A stretch of 64,000 nt of DNA. Origin: Acidobacteriota bacterium. GTDB taxonomy: Bacteria; Acidobacteriota; UBA6911. The position numbers and the translations under genes are program-made. The DNA is taken from positions 1,472,001-1,536,000 of the forward strand of contig OY761556.1 of assembly GCA_963664705.1 (NCBI GenBank), in the 5' to 3' direction. This document shows, piece by piece, positions 46,376-60,261 of this stretch. A model generated the notes under the pieces. It saw nothing but the letters and a program-made list of their open reading frames with translations, was not told where the DNA came from and did no database searches. The number at the start of each line of letters is the position of its first letter. The stretch's first letter is position 1.

Positions 46376-46800
46376 TTTCGCCCTTCAGGGCTACTATTAT
46401 TTCACCACCCTACCAGGGGTTCGCTCCGCTCACCCCTGGCTACTTGCTTTCGGCCCTCCGGGCCTGGTGCTTCGCTCGTGTCGCAGGGCTCAGAACAAAT
46501 TTTGCGCCTCCGGCGTTCCTGCCAGGGCAGGGGTTCGCTCCGCTCACCCCTGCTTAAACTCCGGCGCTTTCGAGGCTCTTTGAACCGCGAAGCTCGCCCA
46601 GAGCCCTACCTCTTGCGCCTCCAGCGTTCCTACCAGGGCGGGTGGGTACTTCGTTGCCCTGTGACTCGATTCAAGCAGCCGTTGGTGTCATCGGCACGGA
46701 GATCCAGCGCCGGAGGCGCGAAAGATAGTAGCCCCGGGCGAGCTTGCGAGCCCGGGGTTATACTCGGGGGAATCAAAGAGCCCTGAAGGGGCGAAAGAAA
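46376..46800. repeat. Family A REP cluster in reverse orientation plus variants
   Basis: 46376-46500 is the reverse complement of the left half of 43455-43575; extra hairpins at 46527-46553 and 46705-46800. Confidence 0.75.
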
Positions 46801-50022: not shown

Positions 50023-50068
50023 ACACAAGATTTTGTGCAGAAACGAAGTTTTGGACTATATCTTGTGT
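50023..50068. promoter_or_regulatory. Tandem NrdR-box-like operators
   Basis: ACACAAGATTTTGTGC (50023-50038) and GGACTATATCTTGTGT (50053-50068) resemble consensus acaCwAtATaTwGtgt; 30-bp period. Confidence 0.55.
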
Positions 50069-50086
50069 GAATTTTCCAAATATATC

Positions 50087-50115
50087 TTGACAAGCAATTG
50101 CAATTCCCTTATACC
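50087..50115 (+). promoter_or_regulatory. Putative sigma70 promoter of the ATP-grasp/KamA operon
   Basis: TTGACA-17 bp-TATACC, 23 nt before the ATG. Confidence 0.55.
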
Positions 50116-50138: not shown

Positions 50139-51164
50139 ATGAGAGTTGGATTAACTTTTAATATGAAGAGGGGCGAGCCGGAGGAGGCGCAGGAACCTCC
50201 TGGTAGTTACCCGGCGGACAGCCAGGCGGAATGGGACACACCCGAGACCATTGCCGCCGTGGAGAGCGCCTTGGCCGAACGCCATGAAGTGATCCCGATC
50301 GATGCCGGCGGGGACGCCTATGGTGCCCTCCAGAAGACCCGGCCGGACATCGTTTTCAATATCGCGGAGGGGAGTTCCGGCCCCTGCCGCGAGGGCTACA
50401 TCCCCTCCATCCTGGAGCACCTGAGAATCCCATACACAGCCAGCGACCCCCTCACCCTGAATATCTGCCTGGACAAAGCGCGGACCAAGGAGATTTTGGC
50501 CTATTACGGTCTGCCGACTTCCCGTTTCCGAGTCATCCGGGAGGACGGGTTTTCGTCCAATAGCCTGCATTACCCGCTGATGGTAAAGCCTTTACATGAG
50601 GGGTCCAGCATCGGGATCCGGAACGACTCGTTGGTCCGGAACCGGCAGGAGATGCGGGAGCGAGTCACATGGCTGATGCGGCAGTATGGGGAGCCGGCTT
50701 TGGTGGAGGAGTTTCTGCCCGGACGCGAGTTTACGGTGTCCATCATCGGCAATAACGAAGAAGCCCGTGCGCTTCCGATTGTGGAGATTCTCTTCGATTC
50801 ACTCCCGGACGGAGTGAATCCTATCTATTCCTATGAGGCCAAGTGGATTTGGGATCAGAGTTCAAATCCGCTGAAGATTTTTGAATGTCCGGCCCGCCTC
50901 AGTCCGGAACTGCAGGCTGACATCGAGAGCGCGTGCCTTCGCGCCTATGCGATTTTGCGGTGCCGCGACTGGTGCCGCATTGATGTACGTCTGGACGCTT
51001 CAGGTCGCCCTCATATTATTGAGCTCAATCCCTTGCCCGGAATTTTGCCGAAGCCGGAAGACAACTCCTGTTTTCCGAAAGCGGCGCGTGCGGCGGGGAT
51101 CAATTACAACCAGTTAATCAATGCGGTCCTGGATACTGCGTGTAAACGCTACAGGTTGATCTGA
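50139..51164 (+). CDS. D-Ala-D-Ala ligase-like ATP-grasp protein A
   Basis: DK.RTK, VKPLHEGSSIGI, EEFLPGREF, YSYEAKW, RIDVR, ELNPLPG; lacks N-terminal GGxSxE of canonical Ddl. Confidence 0.9.
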   Translation: MRVGLTFNMKRGEPEEAQEPPGSYPADSQAEWDTPETIAAVESALAERHEVIPIDAGGDAYGALQKTRPDIVFNIAEGSSGPCREGYIPSILEHLRIPYTASDPLTLNICLDKARTKEILAYYGLPTSRFRVIREDGFSSNSLHYPLMVKPLHEGSSIGIRNDSLVRNRQEMRERVTWLMRQYGEPALVEEFLPGREFTVSIIGNNEEARALPIVEILFDSLPDGVNPIYSYEAKWIWDQSSNPLKIFECPARLSPELQADIESACLRAYAILRCRDWCRIDVRLDASGRPHIIELNPLPGILPKPEDNSCFPKAARAAGINYNQLINAVLDTACKRYRLI

Positions 51165-52207
51165 TGGAACACAACGATTGCGTCATTCTCTACAACGCTG
51201 CGAGTATTGAAGAAGTGGATGGCTGCGAAGAGAAGATTTACGCCTCGAACATTATCCGTTCGGAAGTGGTGGCCATCGAGGAAAGCCTCCGCGAAGGCGG
51301 CTTCAACCCGTATGTGCTTTCGGTTGAGTATTTCACGAAAGACCTGGTCGATACTCTGGCCGATCTCGCGCCGAAGTTTGTGTTTAACCTGGTGGAAGAG
51401 ATCAACGGGAAATGCGAACAGGAAGCCTGTGTCGCGGGGCTGCTCGACATGATGGGAATCCCGTATACGGGCTCCGACCCGTTTGCATTGGGATTGGCGC
51501 TTAATAAATTTCATGTGAAGCAGATCCTGCGATCAGCGGGCATCCCCACGGCCCGCGGATTCCTGCGGTTCCCGGGGCAGAAGCTGTCGATTCCGCGCGG
51601 CATGCGGTTCCCGATGTTTGTGAAGCCAGCCCACGAGGATGCCAGCCTCGGGATCAACAGCAATTCCGTGTGCTACACGGCGGAGCAGCTCGAACGGCAG
51701 ATCCGATATATTCAGGAGATTTATCAGCAGGAAGCGCTGATCGAAGAATACCTGGACGGTCGTGAATTCAACGTCTCGGTGATCGGCGACAAGCGGCCGG
51801 AGGTGCTCGCGGTTCAGGAAATAGACTTTTCCGGAATGCCGGAGGGGGAACCGCGAATCGTGAGCTATCGCGCGAAATGGGACGAGGAGAGTGATTTTTA
51901 CAAAGGCACCGTGCCTGTCTGCCCGGCAAATATTCCGAAGCGAATGGAAAACCGGATTCGCGATGTTGCGATCCGGAGCCATTTGACCCTGGGCTGCCGC
52001 GATTATTCGCGTGTGGATATGCGCACCGATGCCCGCGGCAACCTGTATGTGCTCGAGGTGAATCCCAACTGCGATATTTCGCCGGGGGCCGGATTCGCGC
52101 GGGCCGCAGGAGTTGCCGGATACAGCTACACCGAGATCATTGTCAAAATCAGTGAAACAGCTATGGAGCGCGGCGCGAAAGTGACCGACGCCATTTATGC
52201 ATTCTGA
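51164..52207 (+). CDS. D-Ala-D-Ala ligase-like ATP-grasp protein B
   Basis: IPYTGS, VKPAHEDASLGI, EEYLDGREF, SYRAKW, RVDMR, EVNPNCD. Confidence 0.9.
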   Translation: MEHNDCVILYNAASIEEVDGCEEKIYASNIIRSEVVAIEESLREGGFNPYVLSVEYFTKDLVDTLADLAPKFVFNLVEEINGKCEQEACVAGLLDMMGIPYTGSDPFALGLALNKFHVKQILRSAGIPTARGFLRFPGQKLSIPRGMRFPMFVKPAHEDASLGINSNSVCYTAEQLERQIRYIQEIYQQEALIEEYLDGREFNVSVIGDKRPEVLAVQEIDFSGMPEGEPRIVSYRAKWDEESDFYKGTVPVCPANIPKRMENRIRDVAIRSHLTLGCRDYSRVDMRTDARGNLYVLEVNPNCDISPGAGFARAAGVAGYSYTEIIVKISETAMERGAKVTDAIYAF

Positions 52208-52697
52208 CGAGCATCCAACGATTGCAGTTCGACCGATGGCATCACGCGATCTACCTGTCGTCTCTTCACTAGTCGGGTCGATCGAGAACTTCAATGGAGC
52301 TGAAGTCGACTGTGCCCTGGAACTGATCAACATCTATCTGCAGAACGATAATCAAACCGACTACCGTGTGGTTGTGGCCGAGGATTCTACCCCCTCCGTG
52401 CGTGCGTATGCGTGCTGGGGACCGGTGCCGCTGACCAGGGGGACGTATGACCTCTACTGGATCGCAACGCACCCGGAGTCGCGCGGTCACGGTTATGGGC
52501 AGGCGCTGATGTCGTATGTGGAAGACAAGGTTAAAGCAGAGAAAGGCCGGCTTCTCGTCGTGGAGACGTCGGGAAAAAGTTCGTACACCGCAACGGTTCA
52601 GTTTTATCAACGCCTCGGGTACGAGGAGGCATCTCGTATAGAGCACTTTTACGATGTCGGGGATGACAGGCTGATTCTTGTGAAGAGGCTTTCCTGA
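52197..52697 (+). CDS. GNAT family N-acetyltransferase
   Basis: DLYWIA, RGHGYG acetyl-CoA motif, VETS, FYQRLGY. Confidence 0.92.
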   Translation: MHSDEHPTIAVRPMASRDLPVVSSLVGSIENFNGAEVDCALELINIYLQNDNQTDYRVVVAEDSTPSVRAYACWGPVPLTRGTYDLYWIATHPESRGHGYGQALMSYVEDKVKAEKGRLLVVETSGKSSYTATVQFYQRLGYEEASRIEHFYDVGDDRLILVKRLS

Positions 52698-52716
52698 CAG
52701 GGAGACAGGCTCGCAA

Positions 52717-53811
52717 ATGGAACGAATGGAGCAGTGGACGATTGATTTACGCAACAGCGTTACTCAGGGGCAGCAGCTTGCCGCGGATTTTGGCGCGGAC
52801 GCCTCGGAGATCGACGCCATCTGCAAAGAGTATCCGATGCGAATTCCCAAGTATTACTACAACCTGATCAAAGGGAAAGGGGATCCCGTCTGGATGCAAT
52901 CGGTGCCGTCGATCCAGGAGTTGCGCGATATGAATTCTCCGGAGGATCCGCTGCACGAAGAGGAAGACAGCCCCGTTCCACGGCTGACGCATCGCTATCC
53001 GGATCGCGTGCTCCTGCTCGTGACAGACCGCTGTCCGATGTACTGCCGTTTCTGCACGCGGAAGCGCATGGTCGGCAGGACCAGCACCATCACGGAAAAA
53101 ACCATCGCGATGGGCATCGACTATATTCGGAGCCATACCGAGATACGGGACGTACTGCTGTCCGGCGGTGATCCGCTGATGGTCAGCGACCGCAAACTGG
53201 AGCGGATTATTTCCAGCCTGCGCGCCATTCCGCATGTGGAGATCATTCGAATCGGAACGAGATTCCCCTGCGTCCTGCCGAGCCGGATCACGGATTCGCT
53301 CTGCAACATGTTGAAGAAATATCATCCGATCTTCATCAACACCCATTTCAATCACCCGCAGGAAGTGACGCCGCAGGCGAAGGAAGCCTGCGAACGCCTG
53401 TCGAACGCGGGAATCCCACTGGGCTGCCAGACTGTTCTCATGAAGGGGGTTAACGACGACCCTGCGATTTTGAAAGAGCTGATGCACAAGCTCCTGATGA
53501 TGCGAGTGCGCCCCTACTACCTGTATCAGGCAGACCTTACCCGGGGAACCAATCACTTCCGCACCCGTGTGGAAGCCGGACTGCAAATCATGCAGTCCAT
53601 GCGCGGATACACCACCGGGTTCGGAGTGCCGCAGTTTGTGATCGATGCTCCCGGCGGCGGAGGTAAAATCCCCCTGATGCCGGACTATGTCGTTCGATTT
53701 GATGAGAAGGAAATCGTACTGCGGAATTTTGAGGGGAAACAGTACCGGTATCCGCAGGCGGATCAGCCCTACGTCAAAGATACGCGCGACGTCGAACTGA
53801 TCAACTTCTAG
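52717..53811 (+). CDS. kamA: KamA family radical SAM protein, lysine 2,3-aminomutase-like
   Basis: HRYPDR, CPMYCRFC, SGGDPL, RPYYLYQAD, IDAPGGGGKIP (PLP lysine). Confidence 0.9.
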   Translation: MERMEQWTIDLRNSVTQGQQLAADFGADASEIDAICKEYPMRIPKYYYNLIKGKGDPVWMQSVPSIQELRDMNSPEDPLHEEEDSPVPRLTHRYPDRVLLLVTDRCPMYCRFCTRKRMVGRTSTITEKTIAMGIDYIRSHTEIRDVLLSGGDPLMVSDRKLERIISSLRAIPHVEIIRIGTRFPCVLPSRITDSLCNMLKKYHPIFINTHFNHPQEVTPQAKEACERLSNAGIPLGCQTVLMKGVNDDPAILKELMHKLLMMRVRPYYLYQADLTRGTNHFRTRVEAGLQIMQSMRGYTTGFGVPQFVIDAPGGGGKIPLMPDYVVRFDEKEIVLRNFEGKQYRYPQADQPYVKDTRDVELINF

Positions 53812-53843
53812 GTTCCTTCGATGGAAGTGCAGAGCTTTTGCCG

Positions 53844-54244
53844 GGAGCGCCGCGGTTGTTGCCACCAAAGCCGGTGCTCCCGGCAAAATAGGTTCCATAA
53901 ATAAATGGGGTTGATTAGTTTTTATCTTTGAACCGCGAAGACCTCGAAGACCGCAAAGATTTTTTGGCTCATTTTGCTGCTGGGCAATGAGATAGTGTGA
54001 TGGATAGGAAAGAAGTTGTGCATCATATTGTCGATTCAGCGGTGCCTGATGTATGAAGCATCAGGGATGAAAGCCAGCGTATGATCTGGCGAGAACGATA
54101 ACCGCAAAACCTGCTAAAATATTTTCTTTGCGGTCTTCGGGGTCTTCGCGGTTAATGGGGTTGCTAATTCGGTCAAGTCAGGTTTTGTTAGGAGCGCAGC
54201 GGTTGTTGCCACCAAAGCTGGCGCTCCGGTAAAAACAGGTTCCA
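53844..54244. repeat. 54-bp direct repeats enclosing a nonamer-palindrome element homologous to the 17.2-17.8 kb unit
   Basis: 53844-53897 vs 54191-54244 (7 mismatches by eye); 53894-53980 matches the reverse complement of 17466-17560. Confidence 0.85.
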
Positions 54245-54427
54245 GATCTTTGTACCCAATCAATAACGAGCAGCATTAGGGAAGTACCGCCCGACTTCTT
54301 TAGTGCTACATCGGACAAACCGGCGCTTTCGCTGACGACAGGCGCCGTGGCACTATTTCCACTAAAGGTTTTCTTGCACTGCCGTGTTTCGGCTGATAAT
54401 CTGCGCAAATAATGTGAGGGACGTGCG

Positions 54428-58614: not shown

Positions 58615-58755
58615 AAGGTTCCGCTTTCTGTGGGGGGAGTGGCTGAGGTAAGTGTAGCATTTTGCGCTGCGGAATCTAAAACCGCGCAAAACTCTGTGCC
58701 GATCTTTCCGGATGTCACTTGCGGTGGCCCCGGGCGATGGGTATGCTTTCGGCTT

Positions 58756-60261
58756 ATGTATTCCGACGACGATATCCGTACCTGCATCCGTGTACTCCAT
58801 GATCTGATATCCGATCCCGATGCCTTTGCGCGGCTTACGGAATCCGAACGCATAGAGCTTCTGCATGTGGCCGGACTTCTTTCCCGTCCGGACCGGGAGT
58901 CTCTCAAAAAAAGAAGCAAGGCCATTCGGAAGGAGATGCGATCCGCAAACACCCGGATAGAGCGCGCGGCTCGGGCTGCCACCGGCATCCGGAGCGCCAG
59001 GGAAGCAGCCGTATTCGCGGCACCCCGTATGCTCTCCGCGCCTGAAATCCCACACAACGTCGTGGAACTGAACTCTCCCCGCAACTGCTATATCTGCAAG
59101 GCCGAATTTACCAGGCTCCATTTCTTTTACGATGCGCTCTGTCCGGAATGCGCAGAGTTCAATTATGCCAAACGGTTTCAGACGGCGGATCTCAACGGAC
59201 AAACCGCACTCATCACCGGCGCCCGCGTGAAGATCGGGTACCAGGCAGCGCTCATGATGCTCCGCGCTGGAGCCAGGGTGATCGCCCTTACGCGGTTTCC
59301 CGCGGACGCAGCGCTCCGCTATTCGAAGGAGGAGGATTTCCCGAGCTGGAGCGACAGGCTTCAGATCTTTGGGGTGGATCTCCGCCACACGCCGAGCGTG
59401 GAAATTCTTGCGCGGCATATTGAGGAAACCGAAAACAGGCTCGACATTCTCGTTAACAATGCGGCTCAGACAGTCCGGCGTCCCCCCCAGTTTTATGCGC
59501 ATCTTCTTGAAAATGAACGCCACGGCCGTTCGATCCTTACAGCCGCGCAACAGGATCTTCTCGCGGGATATAGCGATTGCGTGCGGAGGCTGGGAACGGA
59601 ACCTGACCGGGCCAATCTGCCGGTCCGGTGGCAATCGAGAACGCCGGGAATTGGGATTTCCCGATCCGCGGAGCTGTCGCAAATCGCCTATGAACACGAT
59701 CAGTCGCTCGAACTCGAAACGGTTTTTCCGGAGGGGAAACTGGATGCCGACCTTCAGCAGGTGGATCTTCGGAATGTCAACAGCTGGAGACTGAAACTGG
59801 GCGATGTTAAAACCTCGGAGATGATCGAGCTCCAACTGGTAAACGCGGTCGCTCCCTTTGTGCTCTGCAACAGGCTGCTGAATCTCATGAAACGCGACTT
59901 CACAGGCTGCAAGCACATCGTGAATGTCTCCGCCATGGAAGGTAAATTCCTCCGATTTAAAACGAATGGCAGGCATCCGCATACCAATATGGCAAAGGCT
60001 GCCTTGAATATGCTGACCCACACTTCGGCGTCGGATCTGGCCGGCTTCGGCATTTTCATGAACGCCGTGGATACGGGCTGGGTAACCGACGAAGATCCGG
60101 TTCTGCTTGCGCAGCGGAAACAGGAATTGCATGATTTCCAACCGCCGCTCGACATCGTGGACGGAGCCGCACGCGTTTGCGATCCGTTTTTCGACGGCAT
60201 CAAGTCAGGCACGCACTGGTGTGGGAAGTTTTTGAAAGATTACAGGCCGATAGACTGGTGA
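58756..60261 (+). CDS. Atypical SDR oxidoreductase with N-terminal Cys4 motif
   Basis: CYICK..CPEC; [15 protein letters not shown]; HPHTNMAK in place of YxxxK; start uncertain. Confidence 0.88.

Follow-up and report, generated by a model that had tools for sequence, protein, structure and literature searches.

A conserved four-gene module with a KamA-family aminomutase, a GNAT acetyltransferase and two Ddl-derived ATP-grasp ligases as a candidate pathway to acetylated beta-lysine conjugates

Phevamine A of Pseudomonas syringae is assembled by the hsvABC pathway, in which a transferase and two ATP-grasp enzymes work in sequence on spermidine without a nonribosomal peptide synthetase (PMC6187163). 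In the AblAB system, a lysine 2,3-aminomutase gene lies beside an acetyltransferase gene (PMC3543383, PMC2821294), and the route from these two enzymes to N-epsilon-acetyl-beta-lysine is established (PMC3543383). Beta-lysine also serves in the EpmA/EpmB modification of elongation factor P (EF-P), where a C-terminally short aminomutase feeds it to a ligase (PMC2821294). Here, we describe a four-gene operon in a 64,000-nucleotide stretch of an Acidobacteriota bacterium (contig OY761556.1, positions 1,472,001 to 1,536,000; hereafter the window) that encodes two ATP-grasp ligases, A and B, related to D-Ala-D-Ala ligase (Ddl), a GNAT acetyltransferase and a KamA-family aminomutase. The four genes are one conserved module, and the pathway they represent is real, widespread and uncharacterised. 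Its product is probably a beta-lysine small molecule, either conjugated to a polyamine or composed of amino acids only. As a tentative choice, held at somewhat less than even confidence and with all substrates, the order of steps and the product inferred, we favour an acetylated beta-lysyl peptide that carries a polyamine in amide linkage.

The operon shares with hsvABC the combination of a group-transfer enzyme and two ATP-grasp ligases, the arrangement that characterises phevamine-type loci. In contrast, hsvABC has no aminomutase, carries an amidinotransferase in place of the GNAT and uses Val and Phe donors; the likeness is one of logic only. Searches on the operon, its chemistry and Dde_3044 in a full-text literature from which subscription papers are largely absent found no paper that assigns a product, and Iyer et al. 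2009 may describe the neighbourhood; atlas searches gave nothing beyond generic family names. The four open reading frames are as follows.

50139..51164, + strand: ligase A, 341 aa, predicted Ddl-derived ATP-grasp amide ligase; the Ser281 equivalent is S310 and His63 is replaced by Glu77.
51164..52207, + strand: ligase B, 347 aa, predicted Ddl-derived ATP-grasp amide ligase; the Ser281 equivalent is Ala, with additional Asp159 and Asp304.
52197..52697, + strand: small GNAT acetyltransferase, 166 aa, ortholog of Dde_3044 (PDB 2R7H) and not AblB.
52717..53811, + strand: KamA-family radical S-adenosylmethionine (SAM)/pyridoxal phosphate (PLP) enzyme, 364 aa, predicted C-terminally short lysine 2,3-aminomutase.

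Successive genes are joined by a 1-nt overlap, an 11-nt overlap and a 19-nt gap. The first-pass annotation of this DNA had described these junctions exactly, and every motif that it quoted for the ligases and KamA is present in the translations. To assess whether the genes belong together, three sets of loci (160 in total, with few loci shared between sets) were searched with profiles. The first set holds the best 80 of the 584 stretches, among 600 listed, that encode a relative of ligase A. The second holds 40 regions picked for variety from the 75 matching genomes of a 301-genome sample of the host's own phylum and includes single-ligase relatives, and the third holds 40 regions picked from the 62 GNAT-positive genomes of a 201-genome sample around genome G001 (Desulfobacterota group). 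All four genes occur together in 62/80, 26/40 and 29/40 loci, respectively, and many of the misses are contig ends. The main gene orders are A-B-GNAT-KamA and KamA-A-B-GNAT. In genomes with a dispersed operon, the gene absent from the locus mostly lies elsewhere: this holds for KamA in 7 of 8 cases, for B in 3 of 3 and for the GNAT in 5 of 5, one of them as two pieces. We had also considered that putrescine might substitute for beta-lysine in loci that lack KamA, a variant ruled out by the 7 of 8 such genomes that carry KamA elsewhere. The gene-neighbourhood search called for in the first-pass annotation returns a single module that spans many phyla. Ligase A is present in 38 of the 51 genomes of the host's family, and the closest relatives of the operon, among the genome-scan matches listed, are from Acidobacteriota.

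The KamA of the operon is the only one in the host. It scores above the KamA-family cut-off, and its best specific model is AblA (TIGR03820), at 479.6 against a cut-off of 525.4. Across the subfamily models it reaches 480 bits for lysine 2,3-aminomutase, 431 for glutamate, 363 for arginine and 242 for EpmB, under the cut-off of each. In an alignment to the clostridial enzyme (PDB 2A5H), all lysine-binding residues are retained, including the two Asp residues for the side-chain amine that had been picked out in the first reading. The radical-SAM cysteines (CxxxCxxC) and the equivalents of Arg134, Asp293, Asp330 and Lys337 are invariant wherever they align among 97 sequences; we take Arg134 to bind the carboxylate, Asp293 and Asp330 the side-chain amine, and Lys337 to be the PLP lysine. 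The match to 2A5H stops at residue 366 of 416, an equivalent of Cys268 is absent, and the C-terminal zinc and multimerisation region is not complete. It is well supported from these residues that KamA would turn L-lysine into beta-lysine. PF09043, a family of lysine fermentation, matched nothing in the host, in a search in which the control also matched nowhere. At loci L094-L097, where KamA lies apart from the ligases, an ORF of ~107 aa that by eye resembles MerR-type DNA-binding proteins is directly upstream of KamA.

Because KamA scores best with AblA and the AblAB pathway is established (PMC3543383), the operon could be read as an AblAB-like pair that makes only N-epsilon-acetyl-beta-lysine, with the ligases as unrelated passengers. 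However, compared with AblAB, the KamA falls under the AblA cut-off and has a short C-terminus, the 166-aa GNAT has no match to TIGR03827 (AblB), no host protein exceeds the cut-off of that model, and two ligases are added. The GNAT is moreover fused to ligase B in some genomes (see below), and the four genes persist together even when dispersed. This reading is largely refuted by the co-occurrence and we regard it as very improbable, in agreement with the earlier view that osmolyte synthesis by AblAB does not account for the ligases.

A comparable comparison was made with EF-P modification. The short C-terminus of KamA recalls EpmB, whose model it matches at 242 against a cut-off of 369, whereas EpmA is a lysyl-tRNA synthetase (LysRS) paralog and unlike the operon ligases. 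No host protein exceeds the EpmA cut-off (TIGR00462), the best being the product of a 500-aa LysRS-like gene, and the two EF-P paralogs of the host have Asn- and Arg-type tips that lack the target lysine. These two results rule out EF-P modification in the host. Next to the locus of the second EF-P paralog lies a long tandem repeat array of low complexity (L110:1-540), a short way upstream of the window.

Ligases A and B share 35% identity across 284 aa, and both match the Ddl C-terminal Pfam family. Their scores (A 205.8, B 155.7) are below the PRK01372 cut-off of 243 and below every NCBIfam Ddl/Van cut-off shown. In an AlphaFold model (pLDDT 90), ligase A adopts the Ddl fold, with a TM-score of ~0.75 to E. 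coli DdlB. Like DdlB (PDB 2DLN/1IOV) and the Van ligases, A and B have the ATP-grasp fold and the ATP, metal and oxyanion residues, with equivalents of Lys97, Lys144, Lys215, Arg255, Asp257, Glu270 and Asn272 (DdlB numbering, taken from printed alignments). The catalytic Lys, Arg, Asp and Asn positions show no variation across the aligned A and B rows, so both ligases are likely active. The D-Ala site (His63, Ser150, Tyr216, Gly276 and Ser281), in contrast, is not retained as a set. Glu occupies the His63 position in 287 of 287 A and B rows, which suggests a donor more cationic than D-Ala, and the Tyr216 position is changed, being Trp in the host's ligase clade. Ser281, which we take to bind the acceptor carboxylate, has an equivalent in 5/5 Ddl rows and in 139/143 A-type rows (91/91 and 48/52) and in only 7/133 B rows; the search pattern missed 9 B and 2 A rows. 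Ligase B further lacks equivalents of Ser150 and Gly276, and B rows carry an Asp in the P-loop (118/142) and at the Gly276 position (103/133). The retention of this serine in A, together with its loss and the gain of Asp in B, would be explained if the acceptor of A is an amino acid and that of B an amine that has no carboxylate.

FastTree analysis of 146 rows (thinned from 235 by removing many near-relatives) places the five Ddl rows in a clade of their own (support 100) and 68 A rows in a separate clade (97), with B rows unresolved outside both. The host has a separate housekeeping Ddl of the GGxSxE type elsewhere, and housekeeping Ddl is likewise present as a separate clade in genomes G004, G009, G010 and G011. 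The phylogeny that had been proposed as a check thus sets A and B apart from Ddl. Two finer points of the first reading needed amendment. The GGxSxE motif is indeed absent from A and B, yet both have an acidic residue at or near the position of Ddl Glu15, where the alignment is loose. The substrate loops differ between the ligases as it had said (EGSSIG and EDASLG; NPLPG and NPNCD), but the Cys of NPNCD is a local variant (2/142) of a position that is Pro in the family.

Other sequence features were seen in and around the ligase families. An acidic stretch ending in Glu-Pro-Pro lies near the N-terminus of ligase A or KamA, often the first gene (window 50175-50204, L032, L082, L094, L053, L193 and others), and could be a ribosome-stalling translational sensor. 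A third Ddl-like ligase of the host, fused to a PrmA-like methyltransferase, adjoins a YdjC-like deacetylase (L004:724-2394; G000:C1 near 1827000). Related single ligases that have no KamA with them are either fused to the C-terminal side of a methyltransferase-like domain or encoded next to a Peptidase_Mx-like zinc peptidase (L155, L164; L159, L163, L169, L170), and represent sister systems. A Thioflavicoccus plasmid (L108, NC_019941.1) offers a further diamino-acid context: genes for diaminobutyrate transaminase and SbnA/ornithine-cyclodeaminase precede a distant single ligase, and a KamA-family gene is convergent.

The GNAT matched no specific family. Its ortholog Dde_3044 of Desulfovibrio G20 (PDB 2R7H; 37% identity, TM-score 0.90, profile E 5e-49) is known from its structure only: the label 'putative D-alanine N-acetyltransferase' is an annotation, and a literature search returned no functional paper. 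Relatives of the GNAT form 865 clusters at 50% identity (E up to 1e-30) and occur in 62 of the 201 sampled Desulfobacterota-group genomes. None was found on viral contigs, and a plasmid search gave 18 records, all below 60% identity, of which the three inspected are different single-ligase contexts. Ligase B and the GNAT form a single ORF in 9/160 loci, and each of the 24 GNAT representatives that carry a ligase (among 150 listed) has a fused partner scoring as B. These fusions suggest that B and the GNAT probably act at consecutive steps. A complex prediction for the A-B heterodimer suggested in the first-pass annotation scored 0.09, with no controls folded, and speaks neither for nor against it.

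Putrescine or homospermidine genes accompany the module at a minority of loci and, unremarked in the first-pass annotation, hint at a polyamine co-substrate. A pyruvoyl arginine decarboxylase gene is upstream of the ligases in 7/80, 0/40 and 4/40 loci (11/160), often with genes for agmatinase and a deoxyhypusine-synthase-like protein, and in two Nitrospinota loci it directly precedes B-GNAT. The loci concerned represent three supported B clades within an unresolved polytomy (FastTree). In 8/160 loci the operon contains, or has next to it, a GNAT-acetylpolyamine-amidohydrolase fusion, which is divergent in L053 and joined to the operon GNAT in L162 and L193. The best single-domain PDB matches of its deacetylase domain are acetylpolyamine amidohydrolases (E 5e-72, versus 2e-41 for HDAH), enzymes that remove the acetyl group from acetyl-putrescine or acetyl-spermidine (PMC11532494). 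In the Desulfobacterota-group sample, 10 of the 11 genomes with this fusion carry the operon GNAT, versus 62/201 overall, although the Fisher p of 4e-5 overstates the association because kin are not independent and the query was taken from an operon locus. The host itself has an agmatinase-like gene and two deoxyhypusine-synthase-like genes.

Based on these features, we propose the following order of steps. KamA would convert L-lysine to beta-lysine. Activation of a diamino acid, beta-lysine for instance, and its coupling to an acceptor amino acid would fall to ligase A, and capping of a free amine to the GNAT. Ligase B would amidate the remaining carboxylate with a carboxylate-free amine, for which putrescine, agmatine and homospermidine are candidates. 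In loci that have it, the GNAT-deacetylase fusion may reverse or reposition the acetyl group. The product would be a small cytoplasmic acetylated beta-lysine conjugate, with a polyamine as the favoured last partner.

Regulatory elements were predicted upstream of ligase A, among them an NrdR-type operator pair that the first-pass annotation had not noticed.

50023..50038, strand not assigned: NrdR-type box 1 (predicted operator), all six key positions of PMC13584703 matched.
50053..50068, strand not assigned: NrdR-type box 2 (predicted operator), all six key positions matched, separated from box 1 by a 14-bp linker.
50087..50115, + strand: predicted sigma-70-type promoter, with the -35 hexamer at 50087-50092, a 17-nt spacer and a -10-like hexamer at 50110-50115.

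A simple promoter scan did not call this promoter. The -35 hexamer is invariant in 8/8 aligned upstream regions, which also contain two conserved palindromic blocks, and is found at -50 to -54 in 29/30 family loci. This conservation backs the earlier claim that the operon has its own promoter. The 6.9-Mb host genome, in which nrdR is present, was scanned with the NrdR consensus of PMC4009431 at box spacings of 20-44. Only two pairs have <=8 mismatches: that of the operon promoter (6) and one upstream of nrdD (7). Pairs with 9 mismatches are located at nrdJ, before an smc-like operon and a parA-like gene, and at three sites without an explanation; of these, the smc-like and parA-like pairs (G000:C1:3693890 and 4856175) hint at a wider replication and segregation regulon in the host. 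In the best 30 of 38 family loci (window included), a box pair is present at -114 to -121 in 30/30, and 11-12 of the 12 key positions are kept in 29/30, versus 1/300 shuffles and 4/30 at wrong spacings. The linker is 15 bp in 26 of these loci, 16 bp in 2 and 14 bp in 2. The distance from the boxes to ligase A is fixed, whereas that to the divergent DUF2085 gene ranges over 423-774 nt, and L017 has a weaker pair in the absence of DUF2085; service to the DUF2085 gene is therefore disfavoured. As in the described NrdR regulons (PMC13584703, PMC4009431, bioRxiv 10.1101/2024.05.27.596032), there are two 16-bp boxes with six key positions each, mostly 15 bp apart, and an nrdR gene in the genome. The operon is unlike them in that its genes are not ribonucleotide reductases, the window copy has a 14-bp linker, and the boxes are upstream of the -35 element. 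We predict that, in the host's family, NrdR has this operon in its regulon.

Several observations weigh against a polyamine-amidated product of this kind or its predicted control. The steps of the pathway are proposed from observed gene structure, co-occurrence, residues, fusions and motif conservation. The residue roles in A and B are carried over from E. coli DdlB, and the loss of the serine in B is equally compatible with a lysine acceptor on a peptide or protein. The fold of the GNAT is as near to RimI and phosphinothricin acetyltransferases as to polyamine acetyltransferases. Polyamine genes adjoin a minority of loci, with no arginine decarboxylase in set 2; the three decarboxylase-linked clades, being part of a polytomy, may reflect one ancestral event; and the enrichment of arginine decarboxylase is modest (40/62 GNAT-positive versus 58/139 other genomes, with kin not independent). 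Neither arginine decarboxylase nor the deacetylase fusion is in the window, and tblastn did not find them in the host. In an E. coli reporter (bioRxiv 10.1101/2024.05.27.596032), derepression was seen with a 14-bp linker, the length in the window, which may weaken the pair here, although the same length is native in T. maritima nrdJ (PMC13584703). Finally, boxes were not found upstream of loci outside Acidobacteriota or of second-arrangement loci, and the idea that they are a universal feature of the module was rejected on these grounds.

An additional point of this kind is that the GNAT gene directly follows mreB-mreC in one clade (3 loci from three related genomes). Together with the Ddl ancestry of the ligases and a Nitrospinota B-GNAT locus that lies convergently against the ftsZ end of the dcw cluster, this placement would suit beta-lysine as part of an alternative peptidoglycan stem or of an envelope decoration, for which replication-coupled control would also fit. 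The separate housekeeping Ddl enzymes and the altered D-Ala-site residues argue otherwise, as does the absence, at the related loci, of a Mur ligase, racemase or transporter conserved alongside the operon, and we consider an envelope product unlikely.

Modification of a protein or other macromolecule by beta-lysine and then an acetyl cap, with the GNAT as writer and the deacetylase as eraser, is given a similarly small chance. ATP-grasp enzymes of the RimK type can modify proteins, a third, RimK-like ligase joins the operon in 7/160 loci, and a regulatory role would suit both the opposing GNAT and deacetylase and an operator type common to nrdD, nrdJ, smc-like and parA-like genes. Against this, no target gene is conserved near the related loci, EF-P is ruled out in the host, and the deacetylase is much nearer to acetylpolyamine amidohydrolases than to HDAH/AcuC types. 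The peptidoglycan or protein targets suggested in the first-pass annotation thus find little evidence here.

A stronger competitor, though still rather unlikely, is an acetylated beta-lysine peptide made of amino acids only: an N-acetyl-beta-lysyl dipeptide or short oligo-beta-lysine that would act as a compatible solute or nitrogen store, as N-acetylglutaminylglutamine amide (NAGGN) does. Most loci hold the four genes alone, an M24 peptidase follows KamA in 9/80, the B-GNAT fusions resemble the GNAT/ATP-grasp fusion Ngg, and the epsilon-amine of beta-lysine could itself serve as the acceptor of B. Such a peptide would leave the repeated polyamine neighbours and the acetylpolyamine-amidohydrolase-type deacetylase unexplained, and an NrdR-type operator is not expected on an osmolyte operon. 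We retain the polyamine-amidated beta-lysyl peptide as our tentative choice. A bolder extension of it, which we regard as improbable, is that two re-tooled Ddl enzymes make widespread amide-linked beta-lysyl-polyamine polycations, with the charge switched by the acetyltransferase and deacetylase and synthesis tied to DNA replication via the dATP/ATP sensor NrdR.

The G+C content of the operon (0.55-0.56) is similar to that of its flanks, which are the divergent DUF2085 gene on one side and, on the other, a CTP synthase-like gene recognised from its sequence rather than by a family search. No terminator was called 3' of KamA. By eye, the interval between KamA and the CTP synthase-like gene contains two copies of a ~50-bp direct repeat (53843-53897 and 54190-54245) and an inverted-repeat pair (53926-53960 and 54126-54155), and these repeats resemble REP-type elements. 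The sole Rfam match in the window is an Acido-Lenti-1 RNA at 46706-46757 on the - strand, above the gathering score. At 58630-60261 (+ strand), a 543-aa short-chain dehydrogenase has a long N-terminal extension with a CxxC...CxxC motif.

Although the module is common, both of its ligases are routinely labelled D-Ala-D-Ala ligase. Its product would count as a new beta-amino-acid metabolite, made by many poorly cultured bacteria, and the module would be a source of ligases acting on beta-lysine or polyamines. A direct test is feasible, because Desulfovibrio G20 is a culturable, genetically tractable carrier whose GNAT has already been crystallised. NrdR is normally a repressor of DNA-precursor genes, and an NrdR-type operator on a metabolic operon that encodes no reductase would tie this compound to the DNA-precursor status of the cell.

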